Assembly (NCBI GenBank): GCA_019058445.1
Contig: JAHPZA010000010.1
Span: forward strand, 128,001-192,000
DNA from: Promethearchaeota archaeon
Lineage (GTDB): Archaea; Asgardarchaeota; Lokiarchaeia; Sigyniarchaeales; SOKP01
Reading direction: 5' to 3'
DNA: 64,000 nt
Positions 1,322 to 60,702 of the stretch are shown here, in pieces. Numbering within the stretch: position 1 is the first letter of the stretch; the number at the start of each line of letters is the position of its first letter. The notes beneath the pieces were generated by a model. That model saw only the letters and a list, made by a program, of their open reading frames with translations, did not search any database and had not been told where the DNA came from. The translations under genes were made by a program, and so were the position numbers.

Positions 1322-1747
1322 ATGGTAGAACTGAGAGCAAATTTAATCTCCAGATCTTTTATAACGCAAATGATTAAGTTTGCAATTGTTGGAGCCCTAG
1401 GAACCTTAGTAAATATCTCAATCCTTTATATTTTAACTGAAATCTTTAACATTTACTATATTATCTCAGAAATATTTGCATTTTTTATTTCAGGATTAAA
1501 TAATTACATATTTAATAAGATTTGGACATTCAGTGAAAACTTAGAAGCAGAGGCCATAAAAAAATATTTTAAATTCATAATAATAAGTCTCATTTCCTTA
1601 TTAGTAAATCTGGGTGTTCTTTTTATTTTAGTTGAGGTATATTTAATTTGGTATATTTATGCAGAGATAGGGGCAATCTTTTGTGCCTTTTTGATAAATT
1701 TTTTTGGAAATAAAGTATGGACATTTAATAACAAAACTGAAAAATGA
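1322..1747 (+). CDS. GtrA-family lipid-linked sugar translocase
   Basis: 141 aa, four TM helices, KFAIVG..GTLVN, NYIFNKIWTF, NFFGNKVWTF. Confidence 0.9.
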   Translation: MVELRANLISRSFITQMIKFAIVGALGTLVNISILYILTEIFNIYYIISEIFAFFISGLNNYIFNKIWTFSENLEAEAIKKYFKFIIISLISLLVNLGVLFILVEVYLIWYIYAEIGAIFCAFLINFFGNKVWTFNNKTEK

Positions 1748-1796
1748 GTTACACTATATTCTTTTTTTAAAAATAAACAAGTAAGGCAGTATAAAA

Positions 1797-2873
1797 ATGA
1801 ATGAAATTGATAAATTCAGAAAACAGATTGATAATATCGATGAGAAAATTTTAGATCTATTAAATATGAGAGGAGAAATAGTTAAAAAAATAGGGCTTTA
1901 TAAGAAGAACAATAATATTGAAATATATCAACCCGCAAGGGAAAATGAAGTTATTGACAAGTTAAAAAGTTTAACTAAAGTTTTAAAACCGAATAATATC
2001 GAATCTATTTGGAAGGAGATTATGGGCGCCTGTAAAGTTTTAGAAGGTTCTATTTTTAAAGTTGGATATTTAGGACCCCAAGGGAGCTTTACATATCAAG
2101 CTGCCTTGGATTTCTTTCCAAAAGCAGGTACTGATTTTATTCCATGTAAAAGTATAGTGGAAATATTTGAAAATATAGAAAAAGATACTTTAGAGTTCGG
2201 TGTCGTTCCAATTGAAAACAGTCTTCAAGGGACTGTACGGGAAACTTTAGATTTATTAATTGAAAAAAATCTCATAATATATGGAGAAATAGAAATTAGA
2301 ATTGTACTTAATCTGATTTCTCTTACAAATTCGAATCTCTCAAAAATTAAAACCATCTATTCTCATCCACAGGCTTTCGCACAGGCAAGAATGTGGTTAA
2401 AAACAAATGTTCCTACCGCAAAATTAATTAATATTGATTCAACTTCAGAAGCCGTTAAAAAAGTAAAGGATTCAAATGATGTAACCTTTGGTGCCATAGG
2501 AACGGAATTTGCTTGCAAGCTACATGATTTAAGCATACTTAGCTCGAATATAGAAGATAATCCATCTAATTTTACAAGATTTTTAATAATCTCAAAAAGA
2601 AAAAATGAAATAAGGGGAGAAAGAATAAAAACTTCCATAGTTTACGTAGTAAAACATGTACCTGGTGCATTATATAGCGTATTGAAACCATTTTCTGATG
2701 CAAATATAAATTTAACAAAAATAGAATCTCGACCTAGGAGAAGGGGAAAATGGGAGTATATTTTTCTGATGGACTTTGAAGGAGATAAGGATACTCCTGA
2801 AATTCAAGAAGTTATTGAACATATGACTCATAATGTGATCTGGTTTAAAATTTTAGGCACTTATCCATACTAA
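1797..2873 (+). CDS. pheA: Bifunctional chorismate mutase / prephenate dehydratase (P-protein)
   Basis: N-terminal CM (RKQIDNIDEKILDLLNMR), LGPQGSFT, VVPIENS, SHPQA, NFTRF, ACT domain with LTKIESRP. Confidence 0.95.
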   Translation: MNEIDKFRKQIDNIDEKILDLLNMRGEIVKKIGLYKKNNNIEIYQPARENEVIDKLKSLTKVLKPNNIESIWKEIMGACKVLEGSIFKVGYLGPQGSFTYQAALDFFPKAGTDFIPCKSIVEIFENIEKDTLEFGVVPIENSLQGTVRETLDLLIEKNLIIYGEIEIRIVLNLISLTNSNLSKIKTIYSHPQAFAQARMWLKTNVPTAKLINIDSTSEAVKKVKDSNDVTFGAIGTEFACKLHDLSILSSNIEDNPSNFTRFLIISKRKNEIRGERIKTSIVYVVKHVPGALYSVLKPFSDANINLTKIESRPRRRGKWEYIFLMDFEGDKDTPEIQEVIEHMTHNVIWFKILGTYPY

Positions 2874-2970
2874 AGAATCCTTACTTAGTTTTTTATAAAA
2901 TTAGAAAGTTTTTTACATTAAAAAAAATATATCTAATTTACTCTCTATTACTTAAGAATAGATTTGAGAT

Positions 2971-3687
2971 TTGATAATGACTCTTAGAATTGATGGACGT
3001 AAGGATGATGAGATAAGAAAAACTACAATACAGAGGAATTATCTTAAATATCCAGAAGGTTCTGTTTTAATCACACAAGGCAATACTAAAGTTATTGTAA
3101 CTGCCTCGGTGTTAGATTATGTTCCGAGATTTCTAGAAGATACGGGGACGGGATGGATAACAGCAGAGTATAGCATGTTACCTAGAGCTACACAGGTAAG
3201 AAACAGTCGAGATAAGACAAGAGGAAGAACTATTGAGATCCAACGTTTAATAGGAAGGAGTATTAGGGCTGCTTTTAATTATGAGAAAATTGGTGAGCGC
3301 ACTATTAGAATAGATTGTGATGTAATCCAAGCAGACGGAGGAACAAGATGCGCTTCAATAACGGGAGCATTTGTAGCTGTGTTTGATGCTTTAAAATTCC
3401 TTTATGATGAGCGATTGATTTATGAGTTTCCTAATTATAAAACAACAGCAGCAGTGTCTTTAGGAATAAAAAATTCTGAATTATTGTTGGATTTAGACTA
3501 TAGTGAAGATTCCAAAGTTGATGTAGATTTTAATCTTATTATGAATGAAGATATGGAATACATTGAAATTCAAGGGACCGCTGAGGGAGCAACATTCAAT
3601 AGAAAAAGTTTATTAGAATTACTAAAGTTAGGAGAAAAAGGAATTAAAGATTTAATTGAGATACAAAAACAAGTTTTAAATTTATAA
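2971..3687 (+). CDS. rph: Ribonuclease PH (bacterial type)
   Basis: [55 protein letters not shown]. Confidence 0.92.
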
Positions 3688-3714
3688 TTTTTTCATAAAC
3701 AATTTAGCTTTATT

Positions 3715-4866
3715 CTAATGGGCCTCTATACCTAATTGTTCAGGATGTTCCTGGAAATATTTTACTCCTTCTTTTATAATGTCTAATATCGATCTCGTAG
3801 GATACCATCCTGTATCTTTTACAATTTTATCATTTAAACCGATTAATAAGGGAACTTCACTCGGTCGAAGCCTATTTTTGTCTACAAAAACATCTGCAGA
3901 AACATTGAAAAGACTTTTTGCTAATGTTACATAGTCTGCAACTGTGATTCCTTTTCCAGTACAAACATTATAAGGTTCTGCGAACTTTTTTTTCTCACAC
4001 ACTAAAATATAAGCATTTATAGTATCTTTTACGTGGGTGAAATCTCTGATAGAATTAGGATTTCCAATGATAATATTATTTCTATTTTTTTCTAAAATTT
4101 CTACGATTTGTCTATGAATTACGCTGGTTACAAATTGTATCCCTCTGCGGGGACCTTCATGATTGAATCCGCGTGTAATGATTGAAGGGACTCCATAAGA
4201 GTTATTATATAGCCAAGCTATTTGTTCAGTAGCTACTTTAGTGATTCCATAGACACTTCGGGGGCGAAATGGATTTTTTTTGACATCTTCAGTAACAGGA
4301 ACTTCTTCAGGATCCACTAGTCCATATTGCTCACTGCTGCATGCGACTTGGATACTTTCCAATTCGTCTCCAAACCTTCTTGCAGCTTCAAATATTTTAA
4401 TGGTTCCTTTAATATTGTTAGTTATTACTCTGGCAGGTTCTCTAAAAGAAGTGGGAACAAAGGATTCTGCTGCCAAATGAAAAACTGCATTTGGTCGTAA
4501 TTTATCAAAAATTCTGTAAATTCTTTCAGCACTTGTGATATCTGCTTCGTGTAAAGAGATATGTCCCCGTAAATGCTCAATATTTTCATGCATTGGAACC
4601 GCATGTCTTCGTATTGTTCCATGAACTTCACATCCTAAATCTAATAATTGTTCAGCTAAATGACTCCCTGCAAAGCCACTAATCCCAGTTATTAAAACTC
4701 TTTTATCTTCCCAGAATTTTTCATTTGGTAAAGCAGAAGTACGACTTTTGAAATTAGTAAGATAATCATCGATTTTTTCAGGTTTAATTATGAAACCAAG
4801 TTTTTCAAGTTCATTAACGCGGGGATTTTCTTCAATTACATTTTCAATAGGTATAAGATGACTCAT
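3715..4866 (-). CDS. gmd: GDP-mannose 4,6-dehydratase-family SDR
   Basis: LITGISGFAGSHL, HLAAESFVPTSF, SSEQYG, YGITK, FNHEGPRRG..FVTS, RPSEVPLL. Confidence 0.8.
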   Translation of the reverse strand: MSHLIPIENVIEENPRVNELEKLGFIIKPEKIDDYLTNFKSRTSALPNEKFWEDKRVLITGISGFAGSHLAEQLLDLGCEVHGTIRRHAVPMHENIEHLRGHISLHEADITSAERIYRIFDKLRPNAVFHLAAESFVPTSFREPARVITNNIKGTIKIFEAARRFGDELESIQVACSSEQYGLVDPEEVPVTEDVKKNPFRPRSVYGITKVATEQIAWLYNNSYGVPSIITRGFNHEGPRRGIQFVTSVIHRQIVEILEKNRNNIIIGNPNSIRDFTHVKDTINAYILVCEKKKFAEPYNVCTGKGITVADYVTLAKSLFNVSADVFVDKNRLRPSEVPLLIGLNDKIVKDTGWYPTRSILDIIKEGVKYFQEHPEQLGIEAH

Positions 4867-4970
4867 AGTTGTACAGATTATTAATGTATTATTTATTTTT
4901 AATTTAATTATTAAATTTTAGTGACATTCTTAATAATTGCTTGCGAATTTCAATATAATATGAAAACGCA

Positions 4971-5303
4971 TTAATTTTGTAAAATTTTTATGATTTTTTC
5001 ATTTCGTTCATCAAGATAAAATCTGACTTTTTTTAATTTTAAATAGTTATTATCAGAAAAATCGTGTTTAATAATAGTTAATGATATTATAGAAAAATCT
5101 AAAGTAGCACTTTTATGTTCTCTTTTTCCATTTAAAATATGATTTAAATCTGATTCAAATAAAGTGGAGTATTCTTTATATAGTCTTTTTATATCATATT
5201 TATCTAATTTTTTAATCATGATATCCACGTCTCGATAACTCGAAAAATATTCAATAAGTATGTTGCTTTCTTTTAAAAGTTTCAGAAGTTTTGTAGAGAT
5301 CAT
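4971..5303 (-). CDS. Hypothetical protein
   Basis: 110 aa ORF co-oriented between thioredoxin and gmd; no motif recognised. Confidence 0.5.
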   Translation of the reverse strand: MISTKLLKLLKESNILIEYFSSYRDVDIMIKKLDKYDIKRLYKEYSTLFESDLNHILNGKREHKSATLDFSIISLTIIKHDFSDNNYLKLKKVRFYLDERNEKIIKILQN

Positions 5304-5361
5304 CTGTTATCCTCAAGTTTTATTTGTTCTTTCTTTTACATAATATGCTTCGAACAATTAT

Positions 5362-5676
5362 TTATTTTATAATTTTCTCTATCATACTAATTAAATCTTT
5401 TTTTGATTGAGCTCCAATACGAGAGTCTATTAATTTACCGTCTTTAAATATGCTAAAAGTGGGTACGCCTGTTAACTCATATCTTTGTGGTGTTTTTCGA
5501 TTTCTATCAATGTTTAACTTTGCTATCAAAACTTTCCCATCAAATTCCTCCTCTAATTCATTGAGCACATAGTCCATCATTTTACATGGAACACACCATG
5601 ATGCCCAAAATTCAATTAATACGGGTAATGGTGAATTAATTATTTTTTCATTAAAGTCTTTATCAGTGACATTCAT
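5362..5676 (-). CDS. trxA: Thioredoxin
   Basis: FWASWCVPCK active site, GVPTF cis-Pro loop, 104 aa. Confidence 0.92.
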   Translation of the reverse strand: MNVTDKDFNEKIINSPLPVLIEFWASWCVPCKMMDYVLNELEEEFDGKVLIAKLNIDRNRKTPQRYELTGVPTFSIFKDGKLIDSRIGAQSKKDLISMIEKIIK

Positions 5677-5694
5677 TTTTTTAATAAGATTCTT

Positions 5695-7212
5695 TTAATT
5701 ATCAAATTTTGGTTTAAAACCTTTAATTGGTTTAGTTCCCGGATCATATCTTTCTAACACTTTCATTTCACGTTTTTTTCCTTGCCAAGTTGTTATTGGC
5801 ATAATTGTATGCTTTTTCATTTCTATTCGATTTTTTATTTCTGGCTCTTTTAGTACTGCAAAAATTCTTTCAATCTCTTCTTCTAATGTAATCTGGGGCG
5901 TAAATCCAAAAACATGCGGTAATTTTTTAGATACTACTTCAAAAGGATGGGTATCAGCTTCAACGCGTGGATTTTCTAATCTCTGAATTTTAACATCTAA
6001 ATCAAACTTTTCTTTCCCTACGTGAGCAACTGATTCAGCTAATTCAGAAAGTTTATGTAAACCTGATACTTGGTTTACCACATCATATTGACCAGGTTCT
6101 GGCGGTGAAATAATTAATCTAATCATACATTGCATTGCGTCATTTAGTGCAATAAATCCTCTTATTTGTTCTCCCTTTCCATAAATAGTTAAAGGAATAT
6201 TTACAACTGCTTGAGCAACAAATCTATTAATCACAGTCCCAAACCACTCATCTATATCATAGCGAGTTCTTAACCTATTATCCATTGCCAATTCTTCTGT
6301 ATATACACCAAAAATCACACCTTGCATTACATCATAGGATCTTAGCCACCAATATTTGCATGCTTCCAAAATATTAAATGTATCTTGAACTTTACTTACA
6401 TGATAGAAACTAGCGGGATCTCGCGGGGTTGTTTCACCTCCTAGGCTCCATTTCCTATCATCCCACTCGATAATTGCATCTGCAGGAAATAATCCCTCAT
6501 AAAGCGGTCTGCCTGTTAAAGGAGTTCCGTATTCCCCCATTGTCCCTAACTTTATTAAACTTGTTTCCGGGACAACTTCTTTCATCAACCATAATAATTT
6601 TAATGTGCCTAATACATTATTCTCTTGAACTTTAACTGCATGTTCTAGATCAGCCATACTGTATGGAGCACTTGGAATTTCAGCGTAGTGTACGATAGAT
6701 TCTGGTTTAACTTCTTCTAAAAATTCTCTTAATTTTGCTGTTGCATTAAGATTTAATTTTCTAAAATTAATATTTATCCCAAGAACATCCCTGGCAACTT
6801 CTAACCTTTCTGTCATTCTTTTAATTGGTACAATAGTATGTGCACCCTTTTCCATAACACAATCTCTACGGGTAAAATTATCTAGTCCACTTACTTGAAA
6901 ACCTAATTTCGCCAATTTTAGAGCTAAACTCCATCCTAAATATCCATCAATCCCTAGAATCATTACCTTCATTTCTTTCAATATATACCCATATTCTGTT
7001 GGAGTCCATTCAGGACATTGCTCAAATGTAATATTAGGTTCAAAATAGCCTAATTCAGGTCGTCTTCTGCATTCAATTACAATTTCTTCTTCTTCACCTA
7101 AATCTAAACCCTTATCTCTCGCTTGACCACACGCTCTAAAATCCACGTTCCCCATCAATTTCGCTGCTGGACAATTCCAACAGGTTTTATTAGCATTATA
7201 CATTTTTACCAA
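5695..7212 (-). CDS. sqdB: UDP-sulfoquinovose synthase (SqdB/Agl3) with an extra ~80-aa Cys-rich N-terminal domain
   Basis: LGIDGYLGW, SAPYSM, KLGTMGEYGTP, SFYHVSKVQD, FGTVINRF, ENPRVE are SQD1/Agl3 signatures. Confidence 0.88.
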   Translation of the reverse strand: MVKMYNANKTCWNCPAAKLMGNVDFRACGQARDKGLDLGEEEEIVIECRRRPELGYFEPNITFEQCPEWTPTEYGYILKEMKVMILGIDGYLGWSLALKLAKLGFQVSGLDNFTRRDCVMEKGAHTIVPIKRMTERLEVARDVLGININFRKLNLNATAKLREFLEEVKPESIVHYAEIPSAPYSMADLEHAVKVQENNVLGTLKLLWLMKEVVPETSLIKLGTMGEYGTPLTGRPLYEGLFPADAIIEWDDRKWSLGGETTPRDPASFYHVSKVQDTFNILEACKYWWLRSYDVMQGVIFGVYTEELAMDNRLRTRYDIDEWFGTVINRFVAQAVVNIPLTIYGKGEQIRGFIALNDAMQCMIRLIISPPEPGQYDVVNQVSGLHKLSELAESVAHVGKEKFDLDVKIQRLENPRVEADTHPFEVVSKKLPHVFGFTPQITLEEEIERIFAVLKEPEIKNRIEMKKHTIMPITTWQGKKREMKVLERYDPGTKPIKGFKPKFDN

Positions 7213-13132: not shown

Positions 13133-14401
13133 TTGAAAGTGTTGAAAATTAAAAGAAGAAATAGAAGCTTTCTCTTAATCTTTGATAAGCTTCGTAACAT
13201 TTCGCTTATTAAAGATACCGGAATGATTCCTTATTATTTTCATCGCAAATATCATTATAGTTCAAAAATATTAACATATAGGAATGATAAAGCATACCCA
13301 TTTTTACAAGAATACTGTAAAGGGCTGGAGTTAGAATTCTTAAAGAGAAGAAGGTTTTTAAATAAAATATTGGGAATCGAAATTCCCGCTTTAATCTATC
13401 TTATCAAAAATTTTAAAAAAATCCATATTTTAGAAGTTATTTGGCTATCAAATAGCTCAATTCTTTATGGAATTCTATATAAAATGTTAAATAGAAATGG
13501 ATTTCTTTACCTAAAATTAGATGCTACTGAGAAAATAAAATACCATAATAAACTTCATCCTCATGGTTATTATGATTACCAATATTATAAAGAACAAAGT
13601 ATCGTTAAAAACCTCATAAATTCCTTTAGAATAATTCTAGGAAAATTTTTTGGCAATTTGTTTTTTAAAAAGTTAGATTTAGCAAGTATAGAAAGTGTAA
13701 AATTATACAAAGATATAAAGGATTATCCAAGAATTAAACACAAGCTAATTTATCTGCCAAATGGAATAGATGATTATTTCCTAAAAGATCTAAATATTAA
13801 AAGGGTAGATTTTAGTAAAAAGGAAAATATCATTTTAACCGTTGGTAGAATAGGATGGGTGGCAAAAGACCATCACATATTTTTAGAGGCTATAGCTAGT
13901 ATAGAAGATTTAAAAAATTGGAAGATTTATTTGGTAGGAGGTATATATGATAAATTCAAAGATTATATATCTCATTATTTTGTAAAATACCCCCATCTCA
14001 AGGATAAGGTTATATTTATTGGTGAAATTCTTGATCGAAAAAAATTATTAGAATTTTATCAGAAGAGTAAAATTTTCTGTTTAACATCAAATGTTGAAAG
14101 TTTTGGAATTGTATTAGTTGAAGCAGGTTATTTTGGTAATTATATTGTCAGTACCAATTTACCATCAGCTCGAGATATAACTTCAAATAGTCAGTTTGGA
14201 ACTCTATTTAAAATTCGAGATACTGCTAGATTAACAGAAATTCTTGAAAATTTAATTGATAATGAAGAACTTATGGAGAAGAATTATCTTAAAATTCAAA
14301 ATCATATCGATAAAAAATTTTTATGGAGCAAGATTATCTCAAAATTATATAGAGAGTTAAATAAAAGAAGCAATTTGAGATTTTCAAATAAACATGGTTA
14401 A
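13133..14401 (+). CDS. GT4 glycosyltransferase
   Basis: LPNGID, VGRIG..K, TSNVESFGIVLVEA. Confidence 0.88.
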   Translation: MKVLKIKRRNRSFLLIFDKLRNISLIKDTGMIPYYFHRKYHYSSKILTYRNDKAYPFLQEYCKGLELEFLKRRRFLNKILGIEIPALIYLIKNFKKIHILEVIWLSNSSILYGILYKMLNRNGFLYLKLDATEKIKYHNKLHPHGYYDYQYYKEQSIVKNLINSFRIILGKFFGNLFFKKLDLASIESVKLYKDIKDYPRIKHKLIYLPNGIDDYFLKDLNIKRVDFSKKENIILTVGRIGWVAKDHHIFLEAIASIEDLKNWKIYLVGGIYDKFKDYISHYFVKYPHLKDKVIFIGEILDRKKLLEFYQKSKIFCLTSNVESFGIVLVEAGYFGNYIVSTNLPSARDITSNSQFGTLFKIRDTARLTEILENLIDNEELMEKNYLKIQNHIDKKFLWSKIISKLYRELNKRSNLRFSNKHG

Positions 14402-14542
14402 TTAATTGATGAGTTATAAGCTATGATTTACTTGGTTACTTAAAAAATATTTTAAATAAATGTTTTTAAAAGTAAATTTACATAAACTTTAAAAATAGTT
14501 TTTATTCTTTATAAAAAAAAAGAATAACTAATAACATAGAAT

Positions 14543-15985
14543 ATGCAGAAAAAAGTTATACTAATTACGATTGATTGTCTGCGAAGTGATCGCTTAGAAA
14601 TTTATGGATGTAAAAGAAATATTGCTCCTAACCTTAATAAATTGAGTAAAAATTCAATAATTTTTAATACTGCTATAAGTAATGGTCCTAATACTCCCTC
14701 TTCATTTTATGCGATGTTTACATCAGAGGTCCCAACATTAAAAGGACGTTATGCTCCCCTTTCCGATAGGTTAGAAACTTTTATAGAAATTATTAAAAAA
14801 AATAAAATAAAAACGTGTGGTATTCATTCAAATCCACATTTAGGAAAATACTTTAATTATCACAGAGGTTTTGATAAATTTGTTGATTTAATGATTCGAA
14901 AAGAAGAAAGTTTTAAAAGGAGATTTTTTAAAAAGTTGAATTTTTTGCTGAATAAACTGAAAATCACAATTTTTATAGATAAATTTTTATCTTCCGAAGT
15001 TTTAAATTTTAAATTCAAAACTAAGGTTAATACTCTTCTTAAAACTAAAGAATTTTTTTCGCCATATGCTGATGCGAAAGCAATTGTATCAGAAGCTATC
15101 AATTGGTTAAACAAAAATTATCGTTCAAATTTCTTCTTATGGTTGCACTTTATGGATGTACATGGTCCATTAATACCTACTAAAACAAACTTTAAAAAAG
15201 TAGCTAAATCATATAATTATAAATTAAATAAGCCGTTTCTATCTTATATTAAGACAAATTTAGATGAAAGAAACTTAAGTAAAAAGGATTTACCAATTGT
15301 TTCAATACTTTACGATGCAGAAATATTATATTGTGATTACTATATTGGATTTCTATTCAATTATTTAAAAAATAAAAAAATATACAATGATACAAATATC
15401 ATTATAACTTCAGATCATGGCGAAGCTTTATGGGAGCATAATTTTACAGGACACTATCCTTATCTATATGATGAGCTCTTAAGAGTACCTCTTATAATCA
15501 AATTGCCATTATCTAATTCTCTAAATAAATTAATTAATACCCAAGTAGAACTAATAGATTTAGCTCCAACTATCTTGGATATTTATGGAATTCCTAAATT
15601 AAAGCGTTTTATGGGAACCAGCTTAATTCCGTTAATTAATGGGAAAGATAATTTCAATCATCCAGAATTCGCCATATCTGCAACTTATAAAAACAAAAAT
15701 AGATCGTTTCATGGATTAATTAAAAATCTTGATGATTGGAAACTTTTAATTAGTATTAGAAGTAAGTTCTGGAAACTGATATTTTCAGAGCAAAGAAATA
15801 AATTTGAATTATTTAATCTTAAAAAAGATCCGAAAGAGCGGAAAAACATCTATGATAATAAAAATGAATTAATCCTAACAATTAAAAGCAAATTAATAAA
15901 AAAAATTAAACCGTTTTTAAAAAGAAGGATTACCGAAAAAGAAAAAATTAAAGAATCAATTGAAAACATTGAAATAAAATTTTAA
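14543..15985 (+). CDS. Sulfatase-like hydrolase/transferase (AlkP superfamily, Thr at the nucleophile position)
   Basis: ITIDCLRSD, NTPSSF, HFMDVHGP, TSDHGE, GH..LYDELLRVPL, DLAPT, ELFNL..DP.E. Confidence 0.85.
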   Translation: MQKKVILITIDCLRSDRLEIYGCKRNIAPNLNKLSKNSIIFNTAISNGPNTPSSFYAMFTSEVPTLKGRYAPLSDRLETFIEIIKKNKIKTCGIHSNPHLGKYFNYHRGFDKFVDLMIRKEESFKRRFFKKLNFLLNKLKITIFIDKFLSSEVLNFKFKTKVNTLLKTKEFFSPYADAKAIVSEAINWLNKNYRSNFFLWLHFMDVHGPLIPTKTNFKKVAKSYNYKLNKPFLSYIKTNLDERNLSKKDLPIVSILYDAEILYCDYYIGFLFNYLKNKKIYNDTNIIITSDHGEALWEHNFTGHYPYLYDELLRVPLIIKLPLSNSLNKLINTQVELIDLAPTILDIYGIPKLKRFMGTSLIPLINGKDNFNHPEFAISATYKNKNRSFHGLIKNLDDWKLLISIRSKFWKLIFSEQRNKFELFNLKKDPKERKNIYDNKNELILTIKSKLIKKIKPFLKRRITEKEKIKESIENIEIKF

Positions 15986-48347: not shown

Positions 48348-49142
48348 ATGTTTAAACTAATTCTTTTAGTTATAATATTGGCATTTATCTTTGAAACGTT
48401 AGATTCAGCCGCCGGAATGGGTTTCGGAACATGTATGGCTCCATTTTTATTTTTATTAGGATATAGTCCACTTCAGGTTGTGCCTTCTTTATTAATATCG
48501 GAAGCTATTACAGGTTTAATCGATGCCTTTTTTGATCACGAATTTGGAAATGTTCAATTTTCATTTAGACCATTGAATGACCCTACAAAATTAACACTTC
48601 AAGTAGCTATTTTTGGTTGTATAGCAATTTTCTTGTCTATTTTTCTTACATATATTGCTTTTAAATCACCTGTTATGATTATAAAAATATATGTAGCGAT
48701 TTTAGTTTTAACTATGGGGTTTATCGGCTTAATTCGTTTGAAAATTAAAAAAAAAACCGAAATTACCTTAAAACCTAAATTATTTATTGCTTTTTCAGTC
48801 CTTGCTGGATTTAATAAAGGAATTGGAGGAGGAGGATATGGTCCGGTAATAACCATGGGTCAGATTTATTGTGGTGTTTATGAAAAGTCAGCAACTGCGA
48901 TTGTATCTCTCGCAGAAGCCTTAGTATCTATTACAGGCATCTTTACATTCTTGTTGATAACTATAGCCGGAATAGAATTAGATTTAGTACTTTTACCATC
49001 TATTTTTACAGGAGGATTTATCGCTGCTATTTTATCACCATATTTAGTAAGGATAATGCCCAATTTAATTTGGAAAATTATTATTCCTATTTATGCAATA
49101 ATTATGGGAATAATATCTCTATTATTAATAACAATTCTTTAA
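48348..49142 (+). CDS. TauE/SafE-family sulfite exporter
   Basis: About 8 TM, DSAAGMGFG, GFNKGIGGGGYGP; directly upstream of sat/cysC. Confidence 0.85.
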   Translation: MFKLILLVIILAFIFETLDSAAGMGFGTCMAPFLFLLGYSPLQVVPSLLISEAITGLIDAFFDHEFGNVQFSFRPLNDPTKLTLQVAIFGCIAIFLSIFLTYIAFKSPVMIIKIYVAILVLTMGFIGLIRLKIKKKTEITLKPKLFIAFSVLAGFNKGIGGGGYGPVITMGQIYCGVYEKSATAIVSLAEALVSITGIFTFLLITIAGIELDLVLLPSIFTGGFIAAILSPYLVRIMPNLIWKIIIPIYAIIMGIISLLLITIL

Positions 49143-49188
49143 ATATGTGATTTTAACCAAAAAAATACAATAATTCAAGTGAAAATCT

Positions 49189-49320
49189 ATGAGAGATAAT
49201 AGTAAATTAAAAGCGTCTAATAAAGAAAAAAAAATGTTCTTTTATGGTGTTATAATTGGCGTTATCTTAGGATTTTTGCTTGTTATAGTTTTAATTGGAT
49301 TTATTGAATCAAAAATTTAA
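49189..49320 (+). CDS. Small tail-anchored membrane peptide C (43 aa)
   Basis: Own translation MRDNSKLKASNKEKKMFFYGVIIGVILGFLLVIVLIGFIESKI; shares SNKEKxxFFxGxxIGxIxG with peptide A. Confidence 0.6.
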   Translation: MRDNSKLKASNKEKKMFFYGVIIGVILGFLLVIVLIGFIESKI

Positions 49321-49377
49321 AAGAATACCTTTAATTATAGATAATTAATCAAAAAATATAAACGAAATATAAGAAAC

Positions 49378-49617
49378 ATGTCAGAAGAAGAACATAAGGT
49401 TGAATATACTACTGTATCAATACCCAAAATTCTTGCAGATAAAATTAAGGAAAGGATGAAAGGGACTGGATTTGCTTCAGTCTCCGCATATGTAACTTAT
49501 GTAATTCGACAGGTACTTTCTTCAATTGAAGAAGAAGAGAAATCTAAAGAAGCATTTACTAAGGAAGAAGAAGAAAAAGTCAAACAGCGTTTAAGAGATT
49601 TAGGATATATAGATTAA
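49378..49617 (+). CDS. Ribbon-helix-helix (CopG-like) protein with an EEEEKVKQRLRDLGYID tail
   Basis: YTTVSIPK.L..KIK....GTGF.SVS.YV..VIR RHH pattern. Confidence 0.85.
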   Translation: MSEEEHKVEYTTVSIPKILADKIKERMKGTGFASVSAYVTYVIRQVLSSIEEEEKSKEAFTKEEEEKVKQRLRDLGYID

Positions 49618-49641
49618 TAAAAATTAAAAGAGAGAATAAGT

Positions 49642-50787
49642 ATGATTCAACCACATGGAGGTACTTTAATAAATAAGGAACTGCCTAAAATGGAAAAGCA
49701 GCGAATTTTAGCGCAGATTGATGAATTTGAGAAGATTCAAGTAGACTCAGAAACCTGGAAAGTAATAAAGAATATTGCTTTTGGAGTTTTCAGCCCTTTG
49801 GAAGGCTTTATGAATCAAAATGATACTTCACATGTCCTTGACCACATGTATTTAGAAAGCAATATTGCCTGGCCTTTTCCAATTGTACTTGATATCTCCG
49901 AAAGTCAAGCGAATAAAATCAATGTAGATGATAGTGTCATATTAACTGATAATTCAATTACACCAATTGCATTATTGAACGTCAGTGATATTTATAATTA
50001 TAATAAAAAATATTTTGCGGAACAAGTATATGGAACTTTGGATCGCAACCACCCTGGTGTTGAAAAGATATTTAATCAAAAAGAGAAATTAATCGGGGGG
50101 GAAATTTTTCTAATAAACGAGCTTCCCTCAATGTTTCCAGATTTAGACCTAAAACCTTTAGAAACTAGAGTGTTATTTAAAGAAAAGAAATGGGACAGAG
50201 TAGTTGCATTTCAAACAAGAAACCCTCCACATTTGGGGCATGAATATGTGCAAAAAGCGGGTTTAACTTATGTTGACGGATTATTTATTAATCCAGTAAT
50301 TGGGAAAAAAAAATCAGGGGATTTTTTAGATGAGGTTATTGTTGAATCCTATAAGGTTTTAATAAAAGAATACTATCCCAAAGACCGTGTAGTGTTAAGT
50401 ACATTTGAAACCGAAATGAGATATGCTGGACCAAAAGAGGCAATTTTTCATGCAATAGCACGAAAAAATTTTGGTTGCGACCATATTATTATCGGAAGAG
50501 ATCATGCGGGAGTTGGAAATTTTTATGGACCTTATGATGCCCATCAAATCTTTGAACAGTTTCCCGACTTAGGAATAGAACCGATCTTTTTTAGGTCCTT
50601 TTCACGATGTAGAAAATGTGATAGTGTTGTCAATGATAAGATTTGTCCTCATCCCCCGGATGACCATATATTTTTTAGTGGTACAAAAATAAGAGATATC
50701 CTAATTTCAGGGAAAGAACCGACGCCAGATATTATGCGTCCTGAAGTTGCTAAAGTTATTTTAGGATATAATAATCCATTCTGTTAA
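49642..50787 (+). CDS. sat: Sulfate adenylyltransferase
   Basis: PHGG.L, FSPLEGFM, FQTRNPPHLGHE, YAGPKEA, GRDHAGVG, SGTKIR. Confidence 0.95.
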   Translation: MIQPHGGTLINKELPKMEKQRILAQIDEFEKIQVDSETWKVIKNIAFGVFSPLEGFMNQNDTSHVLDHMYLESNIAWPFPIVLDISESQANKINVDDSVILTDNSITPIALLNVSDIYNYNKKYFAEQVYGTLDRNHPGVEKIFNQKEKLIGGEIFLINELPSMFPDLDLKPLETRVLFKEKKWDRVVAFQTRNPPHLGHEYVQKAGLTYVDGLFINPVIGKKKSGDFLDEVIVESYKVLIKEYYPKDRVVLSTFETEMRYAGPKEAIFHAIARKNFGCDHIIIGRDHAGVGNFYGPYDAHQIFEQFPDLGIEPIFFRSFSRCRKCDSVVNDKICPHPPDDHIFFSGTKIRDILISGKEPTPDIMRPEVAKVILGYNNPFC

Positions 50788-50818
50788 TTAAAAATCAAAA
50801 ATATTAAGGAGCAATTAT

Positions 50819-52204
50819 TTGTCTAAAGAGAAAAAAGTGGTGGTCATCGGATTAGACTGTGCTGCACCTAAAACTCTTTTTGAGGATTTCATTGAAGATT
50901 GCCCTAATCTAAAAAAATTAATGACTAACGGAGTTTATGGTAAATTAAGAAGTTCTGATCCCCCGATTACCATTCCTGCGTGGATGGTTATGTCTACAGG
51001 TAAAAAAGCAGGAACTCTTGGGGTATATGGTTTTAGACATCGGAAAAATAACTCATACACAGATTTCTGGGTTGCCAATTCACAAACGATAAAAGAACCA
51101 AAAATATGGGATATTCTTGGAAGTCATGGATTAAAATCCATAATATTAGGTGTTCCTCCAACATATCCTGTGAAACCGCTCAAGGGTAACATGGTTTCGG
51201 GATTTATCACCCCTGATATTTTAGCAAATTTCACATATCCTCCCGAATTAAAAGCAGAAATCATAGAGAATATCGGAGATTATATATTGGATGCAAAATT
51301 TAGAACAAATGCGAAAGAACAATTACTAATTAACATTTATCAAATGACAAAAATTCACTTTAAAACCTTAAAATATTTGATGACAAACAAAGAATGGGAC
51401 TATGTTCAGTGTGTATTAATAGGACTAGACAGACTTCATCATGCTTTCTGGAAATATTATGATAAAACCCATCCAAAATATGAACCAGGTAATATTTTTG
51501 AATCTGTTATTAAAAAATACTATATATACTTAGATCAAGAAGTTGGAGAGATTTTAAACTTAATAGATGAAGATACTATCATTTTCATTGTGTCCGATCA
51601 TGGGGCAAAAGCCATGAAAGGAGTTCTCTGTATTAATATGGCGTTAGAAAAACTAGGCTTGCTAAAATTTAAGACTCCCCCTAAACCCAAAACAAGAATG
51701 CAAGATGCCGAAATTGATTGGAATAATACTTATGCATGGGGATGGGGAGGATATTATGCAAGGATTTTTCTTAATGTGAAAGGTAGAGAGAAGCATGGCA
51801 TTATTGAGCCGGATAAATATGAGGAATGGAGAGATAAATTAATAAAATTACTAAAAGAAATACCAGATATTACGGGAAACAAGATGAATACTAAAATTTA
51901 TCGTCCTGAGGAATTATTTGATATAATACGAGGAGATGCGCCTGATTTATTAGCATATTTTGATGACTTATATTGGAGATCTGCTGGTACAGTAGGATAT
52001 GATTCAATGTACCTTAATGAAAATGATACTGGGCCAGATGATGCGGTGCATGATTATTATGGGATTTTTCTGATCTATGATCCTAAAAAGAAATTGGGAA
52101 AAAAGCTAAAAACGCGTAATATTCTTGATATTGCTCCTACTATTTTAAATATATTTGAAATTGAAATTCCAGGTGATATGGAAGGAAAAATAATAAAAAT
52201 TTAA
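50819..52204 (+). CDS. Alkaline-phosphatase-superfamily protein (type I phosphodiesterase-like)
   Basis: GLDCA, PPITIPAW, DRLHH, SDHG, DDAVH, DIAPT; paralog of 7222..8472. Confidence 0.88.
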   Translation: MSKEKKVVVIGLDCAAPKTLFEDFIEDCPNLKKLMTNGVYGKLRSSDPPITIPAWMVMSTGKKAGTLGVYGFRHRKNNSYTDFWVANSQTIKEPKIWDILGSHGLKSIILGVPPTYPVKPLKGNMVSGFITPDILANFTYPPELKAEIIENIGDYILDAKFRTNAKEQLLINIYQMTKIHFKTLKYLMTNKEWDYVQCVLIGLDRLHHAFWKYYDKTHPKYEPGNIFESVIKKYYIYLDQEVGEILNLIDEDTIIFIVSDHGAKAMKGVLCINMALEKLGLLKFKTPPKPKTRMQDAEIDWNNTYAWGWGGYYARIFLNVKGREKHGIIEPDKYEEWRDKLIKLLKEIPDITGNKMNTKIYRPEELFDIIRGDAPDLLAYFDDLYWRSAGTVGYDSMYLNENDTGPDDAVHDYYGIFLIYDPKKKLGKKLKTRNILDIAPTILNIFEIEIPGDMEGKIIKI

Positions 52205-52224
52205 AAAAATAAAAAAATTGAGAA

Positions 52225-52764
52225 TTGAAAATGGAACATAAGGGGTTTACTCTTTGGTTTACAGGACTTCCATGTTCAGGGAAGTCAGTGCTTGCAGATG
52301 CCGTAGCGGAAGATTTAAAAAATAAAGGGATGAAAGTTGAACGATTAGACGGAGATATTGTAAGGAAAAGCTTAACTAGAGATTTAGGATTTAGTGAAGA
52401 AGATAGAAATAGAAATATTGAAAGGATAACATTTGTTGCAAAATTATTGACTCGTAATGGAGTCGCTGTTCTGGCATCTTTTGTTTCACCATATAACAAA
52501 ATACGAGCTTACTCACGTGAAGAGATTGGCGACTACATCTTAGTTTATGTCAAATGTCCCGTTGGAGTTTGTGAAGAAAGAGATGTGAAGGGAATGTATG
52601 CGAAAGCAAGAGCCGGGGAAATTAAAGACTTTACGGGGATTGATCACCCATTTGAGGAACCAGACAATCCAAATATTACTGTAGAAACAGATAAACAGAC
52701 AGTGGAAGAAAGCAAGCGTATTATATTAGAAGCTTTAGATGAAATGGGATATTTACCAAATTAA
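52225..52764 (+). CDS. cysC: Adenylyl-sulfate kinase
   Basis: WFTGLPCSGKS, LDGD, DLGFS..DR..NI.R, RDVKGMY, FTGID.PFE.P. Confidence 0.95.
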   Translation: MKMEHKGFTLWFTGLPCSGKSVLADAVAEDLKNKGMKVERLDGDIVRKSLTRDLGFSEEDRNRNIERITFVAKLLTRNGVAVLASFVSPYNKIRAYSREEIGDYILVYVKCPVGVCEERDVKGMYAKARAGEIKDFTGIDHPFEEPDNPNITVETDKQTVEESKRIILEALDEMGYLPN

Positions 52765-54645: not shown

Positions 54646-56328
54646 TTAATAAATCATTTCAGGAGGCGGAGGTTTCAAACAAAAACCACATTTCCCAAAT
54701 GATTTAATCGTTTGTTCCCAACAATGTTTATGATAAGCTCGCTCACAGTGCGGACATTCAACATGACACGATTCTCTTCGCCCTGCAATTCTTATACCAC
54801 ACGTAGGGCATTCTATTTTATGACATATAACACATGCTACCACAGAAACTTCGAATATTTTCTCTGAAATTAAATTAAATAAATCAATTAAATAGCTATA
54901 AGGAGTCCACTCCTCAAAAAAATCCTTGAATGACGATTGGAGATCAGACTTGATTTTTTCATGAGTATCTATCTCAAACTCATTTAAAACTTTTATATTC
55001 GGCATTTTCATAGGATAATCTTTCGGTAAATTTATCTGAAACTCAAATGTAATGTCTTGAGTTTTCATTTTCCCTTTCATATTTAGCTTTAAAGTTTGGG
55101 TGGTATTTTCATATTTCAAATCCTTATAATGCTCATTTAATAATTCAATTTCAAAATTTATCCGTGAATTCTTATCTACAAGCCACGCGATTTCTCTAAT
55201 AATTTCGACGGGCTCAGATTCATTTTCTTTCCAATTTTTGTAAGAATTTAAAGAATTAATCGGTGTGTGAATAATATTCTGCAACTCAGAGGATAAAATA
55301 ACCTCAGGCGGCTTAGGATAGGCCGTCAAATCAAGTTCTAATACATACTCTTTAAATCCATAAGTCACTAAATGAACCTTTAATTTCGTAATTTCACCCT
55401 CTATTTCTTCACATTTATATTCATTAAGGATTTTCTTAGCCTCATTTTCAATATGTGTTATAATTTGCAGATTATTTTCGATTTCATGCAAAATATCGAT
55501 GATATGCACTGGTTTCTTGACATTCCATTTCTTTAGCATATTTATTGATTCATATGGATTTCCCAAAATGTTTATAAGTTGCTCTGGCAGTGATATGATG
55601 GGTTTTTGTGGATATTCCATAAAATTTATGTCTATTATGAAAGTTTTTGTTATAGTTAGAGTCATATATATTGTAATATCAGCAGGATTTTGCCCTTTTT
55701 GGTCATATGCATAGTACTGCTGTATCAATCCTAATTCTGTACTAATTTCTACACCAATTGGCTGAGGTTCTTCAATACTCTCTTCATATTTTTCTTGTTG
55801 TGTTGTTTTTGAACTCTCTATTGGATAATCTTCAGCTTTTGAGGGGACTTGATCGGTAGGTTCTGAATAAAATAAGGCATCACTAGAATTGATTTGAATA
55901 TTGTTCTCGAGTTCAGGAGGGTAAGCATCAAGATCAGGGGTAATATACTCCTCAGAATCTGCCTGTTCAATTTTTACTTCTGATATTTGAACCGGTTGTT
56001 GAACATTAGTCGTTTTTTTCATTGTTTCTTGTATCTTAAGATTTAACTCTTTTAAAATATCAACTACCGCTGAACCGGGAGTCCACATTCTCAACTTGTT
56101 TAACTTTACATTACCTAATAAATTTTTTATCGCATTATGATATATAAGCTGAGGGGGAGAATCGGGAAAATCTTCACCGAACTTAATCTCTAATTCATAT
56201 TTCTTCTCTGGTGTCTCATACACATGGCCGTATAAATGCGCAATATTCCCTGACACCATCCAAAAAGAAAATTCTGAAGCGATTTTTTGCGCTTCTTTCA
56301 AAATTCGTTGTCCATCCATAGAATTCAC
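54646..56328 (-). CDS. Multi-UEV/RWD-domain protein with C-terminal C4HC3 RING; FANCL-like putative E3 ubiquitin ligase
   Basis: Four [FY]Pxx(x)P...W..(I/L)xx(I/L)xx(I/L) E2-like repeats; C-terminal CVIC..CPTC..C..CPHC....HKHCW.........CGFC. Confidence 0.75.
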   Translation of the reverse strand: MNSMDGQRILKEAQKIASEFSFWMVSGNIAHLYGHVYETPEKKYELEIKFGEDFPDSPPQLIYHNAIKNLLGNVKLNKLRMWTPGSAVVDILKELNLKIQETMKKTTNVQQPVQISEVKIEQADSEEYITPDLDAYPPELENNIQINSSDALFYSEPTDQVPSKAEDYPIESSKTTQQEKYEESIEEPQPIGVEISTELGLIQQYYAYDQKGQNPADITIYMTLTITKTFIIDINFMEYPQKPIISLPEQLINILGNPYESINMLKKWNVKKPVHIIDILHEIENNLQIITHIENEAKKILNEYKCEEIEGEITKLKVHLVTYGFKEYVLELDLTAYPKPPEVILSSELQNIIHTPINSLNSYKNWKENESEPVEIIREIAWLVDKNSRINFEIELLNEHYKDLKYENTTQTLKLNMKGKMKTQDITFEFQINLPKDYPMKMPNIKVLNEFEIDTHEKIKSDLQSSFKDFFEEWTPYSYLIDLFNLISEKIFEVSVVACVICHKIECPTCGIRIAGRRESCHVECPHCERAYHKHCWEQTIKSFGKCGFCLKPPPPEMIY

Positions 56329-56526: not shown

Positions 56527-59500
56527 ATGTACCAAAAATCAAAAAATAAGCATTTAATATCCTTAATAATATTAATTACCCTTATGTTTATTTTTTCTTC
56601 ATTAACAAACCAAAATTATTTAATAAACTCTAATAATTCTATTTCTGATTATAAGAAGGAATCTGATGAAGAAGATATTAAATCGATCAATCAGTATCCG
56701 GTAATTTCAGATATCAATTATATTAATAGCAAATATAATATATCTGACTGGTGGAATACAACTTTTAGATATCGCATTTGCATAGAATTAGAAGAAATCG
56801 ATTCTATCAACCGATACCAACCATTAGACATATTTTTAGTGTTTCAAGAAAATGAACATTTTGTAAATACATCCCGGTTGGTAAGTTATAATGCGACAGG
56901 ATTGAATGAATGGAGCAATCCAGTACCTATTCAATTATGGAACATAACCTATTGCCAAAATACAAATTATATAAAGACCTGTACAATAACTTTTATAGCG
57001 AATATAACAGCTAATTCGAATAAATTGTACTTCTTTTACTATAATGATAATAATGAAGGAATTGAAATTCCAAATTATAAAACCGAATTTTCTACTATTT
57101 TATCGAATGGAAAACTTAATGTGACTGTTGGACCTCAAGGATCAAAATATCAAGCTTTAATTGAAGAAGGTTATGGTATATCCGAATTTCAAAAAGATGG
57201 AATTAATTATCATACAAAATATTCATTAACTCCTGAGAAGCAGTTAAATCATCAATCTGTTGAGTTATTATTACATTGTGACGAAGAGAGTGGTTCAGTG
57301 ATTTATGACTCTTCTTATAATGAGCTTGAAGGAGATCTCATAGGAAATTCAGAATTTAACATAGGTGTCTTACATAATGGTATAAAATTTGATGGAATTG
57401 GTGATTATATCACATTTGATGATAAATTAAACAGACCATTTGGATCCACAAGTAAAGCATTTACGATTACAATGTGGATTATGCCTACTTCATTGAGTAA
57501 TTCGAGTAGTAATCATGGTGTTATGAATTGCTTTATGGCAAAAGCCAGTAAACCCTATAGTGATAATTTTGAATTAGGAATATTTAAAGAAAATAATACA
57601 CACGGTTTGTTGCATGTATATATTGGAACGGCACTTATACATAAGCAATCGATATATGGTGATGTAATGAGTAATCCAATTTTAACTAATGAGTGGAACT
57701 TTATCGCTGTTAGATATTTTGAAGGAAATGTTGATGTTCAAATTAATGATGTTATTTATGGAAAAGATATAAATAATACAGAACCTTGGGATGGATCCGT
57801 ATATCTTGACCAAGCTAGCGGAAGTCATTTTACATTAGGAGGCACATTAGACAGTGACATCTATTATAATGGAACTTTGGATGAGATTGTTGTATATAAT
57901 AGCTCAATTAGCAATGTTGAAATAAATAATAACAAATTAGCAAAAAAAAAATCATCTATTAATTCTATAATCGAAATCGAGAGTGGTATTATCTTTTCTA
58001 GATATAAAATCCTCTGGAATCCTATTTTTGATATGAATATTGAAGATATTATTACATTCTATAATGATTATAATCTTTGGAATATTTATCGGAGTATATA
58101 TTTTGATAATCCATTTGATCCTGATAAAGCCTCTATGAATGCTCTAAATACGTATTATAATTTAACTGAAATATACAACCAGCAAGAGGGTAAGTATTTT
58201 TATGATAGTAAGGTTAAACAAAATATTATTTCAGCAGGATTTAACGTAGAAAATTATTCCATAATTCATATCCCGAAACCTTATAACGTGAGTTTTGGAA
58301 TTTTTATAGCAGATTATATGGTTTCTGATATTTTATATACTTCTGTATCTGAATTTAAAGGAAAATTAACCTATAACAAGAATATTACAGAATTTACACC
58401 AGGTTCTATTAATGACTTTGATAATAATGATGGAGGGAGTAATTTCAAATTAAATATTGATTTATGGGAATTTATTGATACCATTAATCAGTCAGGAAGT
58501 TTGAATGACAATGATTTATTAAACTATTTCAATAATACTTTAGTTTCACTAAGAAATCCCATAGATATTAAAATTTACCATCAAGAAGCTTTATTTTATA
58601 CATTAGTAATCCATGTTGAGGATATAGATAATAACCCCGTTAATCAAGCCACAGTTTCTCTTTATAACTTGACGAATAATGGAAATATAGATCAATGCAT
58701 ATCAAAACAAAAAACAAGTTTAGGGGGTAATACTACTTTTAAATATCTCAAAAACGATACTTATACTGTAAATTTAACCTATGAGAAGTATGGTCAACCT
58801 GCTTTTCAGGTTATTCATAATCCTGTTAATATAACAGTAAATGAAACAAACTCAGACAGATTTGGTAAAATTACTTACAATTTCTACAATGTAAGTCTTA
58901 CCTCTCTCAAGATGAAAGTGCAAAGAATTGACCCTGATACACATGAAATTAAAGAGCCTGTTGTAAACGCTAATGTATCATTTTGGATCAATAATGGGAG
59001 TGGGAATAAACATATAGGTTATGAGTTAACTGATATTTCTGGTATGGCAATATTTCAGTGGAGAAATTTTTCCTCTGCTAACGATGGAAATATCACTTTT
59101 GCGATAATCTGGTATGACAATCCACATAATATTTCTACAGAGGGAGATTTACTTAAAGAAAATTCAACTCATATCACGTTATATTTTTATAGGGGAAATA
59201 TTATTGTTGTCAATTTGACATCTTATAAATTTGCAACCGCTCTTGTGGAATCTATCCCTGATGGTGTATACATTGGAGATGAAATAACCTTCCAAGTGAA
59301 CTATTCTTATACCATAAATTACACGGATATAAAACCTATAGAAAATGCAAGAGTATATTATTATATTAAGATCGATAATACAAATATAAGTTCAAAATTA
59401 ATCGAATTCAATGAGACAACAATAAAGGGGACTTATAGTACAAAGATTAATACTTCTAATCCTGAAGATCCAAATATTAATTTTTTAGCAGAAATTTCCT

Positions 59501-60702
59501 ATAGGATGGTTATTCACGCTTCTAAAGCAGGATATATCCCTACTACGACAATTATATTATTTGAACTCTTATTTAAAAGCACCAATTTAACCTCTGATCA
59601 AAATTATAGAGAAGTTGTTTGGAATGAAAATTTTACTTTAGAAGTATATTATGAAGATATACATAATTTACCTTATAAAGGAATTGATGGAGCTTCAGTT
59701 AATTATTCGGTTATTGGAATGCCGAATATTAATGGTTCTATTTTCCCAAATGGAATAGATGGGTGGTATCAACTTGAATTAAATAGTTCAATTTTTAATA
59801 TTACAGGTGAATATGATATAAAGATTACAGCAAATAAAAAATTCTATGAATTTAAAACTATTTTTATTGAAATAAAAATCTTAGCAAGACCGACTTTAAT
59901 TAATGGGAAACCGCAGTTACAAAACAAGATATATAACTTGTATTTTGGGGAAATGAGAAATTTTACTATATCTTATACAGATGAGTTTTTAAATGAGACT
60001 ATTATTGACCTTGATGATCAGTCATATATATGGAAGATATATGATGTCGATTTTAAATTAATTGCTCAGGGTGAAAGAAATCTAATTTTAAATGAAGAAA
60101 ATCTTTATGTTTTAGATTCTAAGGATTTCCGTAATTTTCTTGGAACAATTACTTTTGAAATAATTTTATTTAAAATGAACTATGAAGAAAAAGAAATTAA
60201 ACTTATATATAATATTGTTGAAAATGAATTTGAATATGAATTAAGTACAGGTTTTAAAGAGAAGAATATAGAAATGGAAAAAGACATTTCGAAAAAATTA
60301 AGAATTAAGCTTTTTACTCCTTCTTTAGGAAATGTTCCTTTAACTGGAGCAAAAGTTATTTTGAATATTAAAGATAAAGATTATGATTTTATAGAAATTG
60401 AGGATGGCTTATATGAATTAGATTATAAACAAGAAGAAGTTGATACAACTTTTTTTAAATCTGAGTATTTTCAAGGTAAAATAGATATAACTATATATGG
60501 ATATGAAGATAAGAATATCAATGTAAATATTATTATTAAAAGAGAAGAGATTTTTCCAGGAGTACCTATATTTTACTTTTTGCTATTTTTAGGGGCAATC
60601 TTTTTTGTATTAGGAATTACCATAATAGATAAATTAATCAAAATAGAATCTTTTACTATATTAATAAAGAAACTTAAAAAGAATAACGTAATGAAAAAAT
60701 AA
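56527..60702 (+). CDS. Large cell-surface glycoprotein (signal/TM, LamG-like domain, beta-sandwich repeats, C-terminal TM)
   Basis: N-terminal hydrophobic helix; WWN..FRYR; LamG (FDGIGDYI, FTITMWI, W.FIAV.Y, YNGTLDEIVVYN); C-terminal TM plus Lys tail; many NxS/T sequons. Confidence 0.8.
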   Translation: MYQKSKNKHLISLIILITLMFIFSSLTNQNYLINSNNSISDYKKESDEEDIKSINQYPVISDINYINSKYNISDWWNTTFRYRICIELEEIDSINRYQPLDIFLVFQENEHFVNTSRLVSYNATGLNEWSNPVPIQLWNITYCQNTNYIKTCTITFIANITANSNKLYFFYYNDNNEGIEIPNYKTEFSTILSNGKLNVTVGPQGSKYQALIEEGYGISEFQKDGINYHTKYSLTPEKQLNHQSVELLLHCDEESGSVIYDSSYNELEGDLIGNSEFNIGVLHNGIKFDGIGDYITFDDKLNRPFGSTSKAFTITMWIMPTSLSNSSSNHGVMNCFMAKASKPYSDNFELGIFKENNTHGLLHVYIGTALIHKQSIYGDVMSNPILTNEWNFIAVRYFEGNVDVQINDVIYGKDINNTEPWDGSVYLDQASGSHFTLGGTLDSDIYYNGTLDEIVVYNSSISNVEINNNKLAKKKSSINSIIEIESGIIFSRYKILWNPIFDMNIEDIITFYNDYNLWNIYRSIYFDNPFDPDKASMNALNTYYNLTEIYNQQEGKYFYDSKVKQNIISAGFNVENYSIIHIPKPYNVSFGIFIADYMVSDILYTSVSEFKGKLTYNKNITEFTPGSINDFDNNDGGSNFKLNIDLWEFIDTINQSGSLNDNDLLNYFNNTLVSLRNPIDIKIYHQEALFYTLVIHVEDIDNNPVNQATVSLYNLTNNGNIDQCISKQKTSLGGNTTFKYLKNDTYTVNLTYEKYGQPAFQVIHNPVNITVNETNSDRFGKITYNFYNVSLTSLKMKVQRIDPDTHEIKEPVVNANVSFWINNGSGNKHIGYELTDISGMAIFQWRNFSSANDGNITFAIIWYDNPHNISTEGDLLKENSTHITLYFYRGNIIVVNLTSYKFATALVESIPDGVYIGDEITFQVNYSYTINYTDIKPIENARVYYYIKIDNTNISSKLIEFNETTIKGTYSTKINTSNPEDPNINFLAEISYRMVIHASKAGYIPTTTIILFELLFKSTNLTSDQNYREVVWNENFTLEVYYEDIHNLPYKGIDGASVNYSVIGMPNINGSIFPNGIDGWYQLELNSSIFNITGEYDIKITANKKFYEFKTIFIEIKILARPTLINGKPQLQNKIYNLYFGEMRNFTISYTDEFLNETIIDLDDQSYIWKIYDVDFKLIAQGERNLILNEENLYVLDSKDFRNFLGTITFEIILFKMNYEEKEIKLIYNIVENEFEYELSTGFKEKNIEMEKDISKKLRIKLFTPSLGNVPLTGAKVILNIKDKDYDFIEIEDGLYELDYKQEEVDTTFFKSEYFQGKIDITIYGYEDKNINVNIIIKREEIFPGVPIFYFLLFLGAIFFVLGITIIDKLIKIESFTILIKKLKKNNVMKK

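Follow-up and report, generated by a model that had tools for sequence, protein, structure and literature searches.

Described RWD-RING ligases and the Lokiarchaeial gene

The closest described counterparts of the protein analysed here are FANCL (PDB 3k1l, 3zqs, 7kzp_L, 6sri_q), in which three non-catalytic E2 folds are followed in order by a C4HC3 RING of the two-zinc type, and Listerin/Ltn1 (PDB 8aaf_e, 9gy4_F), in which an RWD domain runs directly into a C4HC3 RING, in a chain that also has a long HEAT/ARM arm and a ribosome-binding N-terminal domain. RBX1, RBX2 and APC11 are small stand-alone RING-H2 proteins, and the RBX1-type RING holds three zincs (PMC3166285). BABAM2/BRE (PDB 6gvw_C) is a scaffold of non-catalytic E2 folds in tandem, is linked to JAB deubiquitylases and has no RING, whereas our protein has one. 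In archaea, operons of ubiquitin, E1, E2 and a small RING (PMC5654768) and an Asgard UEV-Vps23 (10.1101/2023.07.25.550441) belong to the same pathway, and such neighbourhoods recur around relatives of the gene described below. The E3s in these studies are small or single-domain RINGs, the UEV is single and no multi-RWD RING fusion is described; Asgard-type E1/E2/RING cascades do function in vitro (PMC5654768; 10.1101/2023.07.25.550441). One Asgard RWD-like sequence has been mentioned without such an architecture (PMC6601020), and it may belong to the present family. We found no publication on a multi-RWD RING family in a search to which subscription papers and most supplements were closed, and a 2026 structural-clustering preprint held nothing relevant to it.

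We have analysed a stretch of 64,000 nucleotides (the window) of contig JAHPZA010000010.1, from an Asgard archaeon of the Lokiarchaeia, which carries an intact open reading frame on its minus strand (54646-56328; features in Table 1). The start is probably the ATG at 56319 rather than the upstream GTG at 56328, because the database protein has 557 aa and the homologues begin at the same Met; residue numbers are counted from the GTG, as in the original prediction, and not from the ATG. The four repeat motifs and eight zinc ligands quoted in that prediction were all found where it had placed them (the codon of C499 starts at 54834). With 325 homologues, the best 120 of these at 55-76% identity, the frame is not a chance one. 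Pfam gave UQ_con (E 6e-11 for the protein) and RWD above cut-off. An AlphaFold2 model of the full protein, built on 66 homologues, consists of four helix/beta-meander/helix units (pLDDT about 65-92), with the linker disordered and the tail weaker, so that four RWDs, linker and RING use up the chain entirely. A scan for promoters and terminators, with bacterial patterns, was near chance.

Table 1. Features of the RWD-RING gene, in window positions
Feature	Position	Strand	Remarks
Family gene, 557-aa protein	54646..56319	-	RWD1 - acidic linker - RWD2 - RWD3 - RWD4 - RING (most likely three-zinc)
Repeat 1, non-catalytic E2/UEV/RWD fold	56005..56319	-	pLDDT 82-92; Z up to 11.8 to E2s
Linker, acidic and Pro-rich, predicted disordered	55750..56004	-	pLDDT < 50
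Short linker motif YITPDLxAYPP	55905..55956	-	conserved in 148/175 full-length members
Repeat 2, RWD fold	55465..55749	-	AlphaFold2 model and HHalign
Repeat 3, RWD fold, close duplicate of repeat 2	55171..55464	-	HHalign E 3e-19
Repeat 4, most E2-like and most distinct RWD	54850..55170	-	Z 11.2 to RWDD1; Pfam RWD above cut-off
RING, C4HC3 core C499/C502/C525/C528/H533/C536/C547/C550	54679..54834	-	all invariant or nearly
Putative third zinc site C507/C510/C521/H535	54724..54810	-	in register with RBX1/APC11

Dead E2 folds and a cysteine-rich RING

The original prediction had read the chain as four UBC/RWD folds devoid of HPN and catalytic Cys, with an acidic, Pro-rich linker between the first and the other three, and both parts were borne out. 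Structures of E2s, of the Tsg101 UEV and of RWD domains align to units 1 and 4 at Z 10-12, the helix, beta-meander, YPxxxP turn and helices that define RWD/UEV domains (PMC6601020) are present in the repeats, and alignment to real Asgard E2s shows the HPN and catalytic Cys region to be absent from all four. The linker has 20 D/E, 9 P and 4 K/R in 85 aa, and its conserved motif is a possible docking or self-inhibition motif. Repeats 1-3 align with one another at HHalign E values of 3e-19 to 2e-12 and are far nearer to one another than to any FANCL domain; repeat 4 aligns with the others more weakly (1e-7 to 1e-10). The simplest reading is that the copy number of the front repeats rose within Asgard archaea, and the agreement with FANCL's count of three therefore need not be inheritance. 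Repeats 2 and 3 superpose on the FANCL double RWD with a TM of 0.62 by target (Atlas shape search), and the repeat-2 type of RWD also occurs singly in unrelated Asgard fusions (Zn-ribbon-RWD, RWD-JAB). Repeat 4 matches the Listerin-type UBC_like profile of Pfam at E 1e-4, below cut-off. It is joined to the RING by a helix, as in Listerin and FANCL, and not by a strand as in the RBX1 type.

That the C-terminus is a RING was confirmed. Its eight core ligands are conserved, it is among the most conserved parts of the protein and, folded alone (pLDDT 85), its top 50 structure matches were all of RING/U-box type, which disposes of a PHD, C1 or zinc-ribbon fold. The best match was Ltn1 (Z 7.3, rmsd 1.8, 55 aligned), followed by LTN1 (6.2), FANCL (5.1-5.2) and APC11 (5.1). 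The C4HC3 description stands for the core and not for a plain two-zinc form: conservation of 98-100% extends beyond the eight quoted ligands to H503, C507, C510, C521 and H535, and the last four of these, overlooked before, make up the putative third site. Against PDB the RING profile found RBX1 first (E 1.3e-6), then RBX2 (7e-5) and APC11 (2e-4), bearing in mind that a Cys-rich profile favours Cys-rich targets. In the profile alignment the inserted CxxC of RBX1, its next Cys and the His before its sixth ligand fall on C507, C510, C521 and H535, and in RBX1 these residues bind the third zinc. Our RING differs from the RBX1/APC11 type in its C4HC3 core and in lying within a 557-aa multidomain chain, and the RBX1 type is not its best structural match; the Pfam profile zf-rbx1 stayed below cut-off.

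The relatives of the protein bear on the same point. The position of H535 is Ala, Asn, Arg or Gly in those that lack the insertion and nearly always His or Cys in those that have it. We rejected the idea that the ligands were lost together in many independent events, since the family tree, made from an alignment that included the ligand columns, requires one change within the RWD-RING family plus probably one separate case (P0227). The co-variation thus supports the site, although not statistically. Also rejected was C507/C510 as the first ligand pair, which is how short Pfam and PDB matches align, because relatives without the insertion retain C499/C502. Most likely, as far as sequence can tell, the RING holds three zincs. 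The insertion may be specific to Lokiarchaeia, and it is quite possible that the likeness to the third site of RBX1 arose by convergence. A search for stand-alone small three-zinc Asgard RINGs gave strong matches only to pieces of the RWD-RING family (a word-seeded search, hence weak evidence). An almost identical three-zinc RING occurs in fusions with beta-helix/NosD and other RWD-less proteins (P0173-P0194, e.g., P0175 and P0179), and therefore moves as a module.

The E2-facing side of the RING is unusual. An Ile adjacent to the RING and facing the E2 is invariant in 175/175 full-length members, and the canonical E2 surface is otherwise absent from all of them, with Thr in place of Trp, Gly in place of the Pro in the last Cys pair and Leu at the linchpin. 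The Trp in question belongs to the E2-binding surface (PMC5654768). The Pro is kept in divergent members and the Trp in a form from Jordarchaeia. A FANCL-like tail, seen in the original prediction, is shared only in part; the Trp stands at Cys+1 and not at Cys+4, and the last pair, CGFC, has no Pro.

Family range, gene neighbourhood and ubiquitin system

The family of three to four RWDs plus RING spans Lokiarchaeia. Named homologues are from Asgard archaea, mostly Promethearchaeota/Lokiarchaeia, and in a search of 379 genomes of the phylum each of the six families of Lokiarchaeia with a match had full-length ones; families outside the order of the window's host often carry two paralogues, and beyond the class the matches are partial. 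Relatives of 350-430 aa, one of them named Helarchaeota, have three RWDs and a RING and are missing repeat 1. Two longer ones (P0144 and P0148, 670-690 aa) have four RWDs, and in P0144 a second RING is weakly matched at the N-terminus. One member of a divergent branch bears the name Thermoplasmata. In Jordarchaeia/Freyarchaeota there is a RING protein of 286 aa with two RWDs, a distant look-alike whose tie to the Lokiarchaeia family is weak (about 28 bits, vs. 20 for an ordinary E2). With its FANCL-like spacing and Trp this protein (L098:1501-2361) is a better candidate for a FANCL-type RING than the window gene; its counterpart in the complete Freyarchaeum genome is an open frame of only 198 aa.

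The window shows the gene on its own, between a membrane protein gene and the divergent gene of a large surface protein (56527-60702, 1391 aa, with a laminin-G domain). About 60 of 80 related loci (Lokiarchaeales) have an Ile-tRNA-synthetase-type gene downstream, directly adjacent (77-536 bp away) in 46 counted loci. In the window the two genes are separated by genes for a TauE exporter, ATP sulfurylase, a phosphodiesterase/sulfatase-fold protein and APS kinase (48348-52764), and this looks like an inserted sulfate-activation block, as the two adjoin in most relatives. In two genomes a three-RWD RING paralogue comes after archease, RtcB, a Roadblock gene and a small ORF (L096, L097, about 800-6300).

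Other members of the family lie among ubiquitin genes. A more distant relative, a three-RWD RING gene, heads a Ub-E1-E2-JAB-RING operon, the Helarchaeales gene is directly 5' of E1, E2 and JAB, another relative's gene overlaps a JAB gene and yet another precedes a RING gene. The two-RWD RING gene of Jordarchaeia abuts Ub-E2-E1. A search of the host genome for ubiquitin, E1 and E2, proposed along with the original prediction, turned up ubiquitin (genome C10, about 495.8 kb), two E1s, two intact E2s and JAB. The genes form a Ub-E1-E2-JAB-RING operon and, on the same contig, a second E1/E2 pair. The E2 that adjoins the Helarchaeales gene is 63% identical to the E2 of the second pair (genome C10:386570-387082) and 40% to the other, which makes the former the likeliest partner as judged from sequence. 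Cullin gave no match in this host genome, which is 92.6% complete.

Some further observations concern the ubiquitin genes themselves. The ubiquitin of the host operon ends in Ala-Gly, not Gly-Gly. A coiled-coil RING gene lies between this operon and a proteasome-beta-like gene, and a second protein with a C-terminal ubiquitin-like domain is encoded nearby (L081:4285-6372 and 13770-14660). The host genome also encodes, on C3, an RWD fused to a Prok-JAB domain (L085:4185-4841) and a protein with a VWA/Ssl1 domain and two RING-like fingers, a TFIIH p44-like layout (L086:4154-5392). In Hodarchaeales a zinc-ribbon and RWD gene is found between E2 and ubiquitin-like genes (L101:1360-3014 and L100).

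A probable ubiquitin ligase and its relation to FANCL and Listerin

We consider it probable that the protein serves the ubiquitin system of Lokiarchaeia as a single-chain RING E3 ubiquitin ligase, a role already proposed by the original prediction and supported by the gene context of the relatives. Its basis is observed: a RING fold behind four non-catalytic E2/RWD folds, strict conservation, the ubiquitin operons of relatives and the ubiquitin, E1, E2 and JAB genes of the genome; E2 binding and catalysis are inferred. The RING, stiffened by the putative third zinc, would dock the E2~ubiquitin thioester and repeat 4 would position and support it, while repeats 1-3 might bind substrate, ubiquitin or partner subunits and the flexible linker could allow repeat 1 to reach out or to autoinhibit. 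The last RWD and the RING are the same kind of module as the ends of Listerin and FANCL. Observations that speak against a ligase are the loss of the canonical E2-binding Trp, Pro and linchpin in every full-length member and the absence of ubiquitin genes near the window gene itself.

The first of these is also why we keep in view a main rival, unlikely as we think it: a non-catalytic adaptor or partner, in effect a BABAM2-like multi-RWD scaffold binding ubiquitin or a JAB deubiquitylase, whose RING would no longer activate an E2 or would be the passive half of a RING heterodimer. BABAM2 is second to FANCL in the Foldseek search (E 1e-6), the overlap with a JAB gene in a relative and the RWD-JAB fusion of the host genome would fit, and the same RING also sits on beta-helix proteins. 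Against this, the RING is among the most conserved parts of the protein, and Pro and Trp do persist, in divergent members and in the Jordarchaeia form, respectively. Moreover, many active RINGs have neither Trp nor linchpin, and RBX1 and FANCL themselves lack the Arg linchpin.

Returning to the ligase, two narrower versions of it can be considered. One is a Listerin-like translation quality control, in which the RWD4-RING tail would ubiquitylate stalled nascent chains and repeats 1-3 would replace the HEAT arm. The Listerin module is both the best contiguous sequence match, yeast Ltn1 giving a single alignment over both RWD and RING (E 1.3e-6, 27.3 bits) with identical core spacing (C-x2-C-x4-H-x2-C), and the best RING structure match; the Listerin-type UBC_like profile is found weakly in 18 of 38 members vs. 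two each for FANCL d1 and d2; and tRNA synthetase and archease/RtcB are among the neighbours. We nevertheless hold this role to be quite improbable. The HEAT/ARM region and the Listerin N-terminal domain are missing, three more RWDs and the putative third zinc site are present and Trp and Pro are replaced; a Z below 8 is middling, the neighbours may reflect plain synteny and the C-x2-C-x4-H spacing is frequent among the other RINGs of this genome.

The other version, a true FANCL orthologue in which repeats 2-4 and the RING would share their ancestor, domain for domain, with ELF, double RWD and RING and which would monoubiquitylate a DNA-repair clamp, we regard as quite improbable too. The FANCL-like domain order proposed originally was recovered: FANCL is the top Foldseek match of the whole chain (E 3e-8), ahead of BABAM2 and Ltn1, and in the two Atlas searches no cluster other than the protein's own came closer, whether by features (0.89, a lead only) or by shape. 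The module profile matches chicken FANCL (E 3e-6), relatives of 350-370 aa share its size and order, and the Jordarchaeia RING has the C-x4-C spacing and Trp of FANCL and reaches E 2e-4, below cut-off, with FANCL_C. However, the whole-chain TM is just 0.2-0.3 with an rmsd >20, FANCL and Ltn1 tie in whole-chain score, and artificial E2-RING fusion constructs equal or beat FANCL, so that such scores report layout. None of the profiles FANCL_d1, d2, d3 and FANCL_C reached its cut-off (the best for this protein was FANCL_d1, E 0.09), the last RWD and RING scored 18.1 bits against FANCL vs. 27.3 against yeast Ltn1 (with different profiles), and FANCL was outside the top 60 for the RING profile and the broad profile A4, an absence that does not amount to exclusion. 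Compared with FANCL, our protein has an extra N-terminal repeat and the acidic linker, and its RING has C-x2-C with Thr at Cys+4 in place of C-x4-C-x4-H-x2-C-x3-W, putative third-zinc ligands, and a gap of 10 residues from the sixth to the seventh ligand, about half that of FANCL. Repeats 1-3 are mutual duplicates, and the Jordarchaeia protein is only weakly linked to the family. Conserved neighbours of the related loci include no repair genes, and FANCD2/FANCI gave no match in the host genome (92.6% complete; search without positive control). The specific forerunner of FANCL proposed by the original prediction is not supported by this comparison, in which the Listerin module matches better and the putative third site is of RBX1 type, and neither are FANCL orthology and a role in DNA repair. 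The protein resembles an RWD-RING ligase in the way it would work, yet lacks what defines FANCL, Listerin and RBX1.

The likeness to FANCL and Listerin may reflect descent or convergence. A tentative idea, possible although somewhat doubtful, is that FANCL and Listerin end in a module whose archaeal sister is the Asgard RWD-RING module and, in the strongest form, that the putative third zinc site of the Asgard module is ancestral to that of RBX1/APC11. If so, the fused pseudo-E2/RING ligase would predate eukaryotes, and in the strongest form a single Asgard family would be linked to three core ligase lineages of eukaryotes. The family provides a concrete sequence set for the origin of eukaryotic RWD domains and RWD-RING ligases, a question raised before (PMC6601020), and with E1, E2 and ubiquitin of the same genome identified a direct assay is possible. 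Asgard archaea are among the closest microbial relatives of eukaryotes. The archaeal E3s characterised to date are small RINGs; this one is multidomain, class-wide and strongly conserved, which suggests that the design of FANCL and Listerin, with dead E2 folds and a RING fused in one ligase, was already in use in Asgard archaea.
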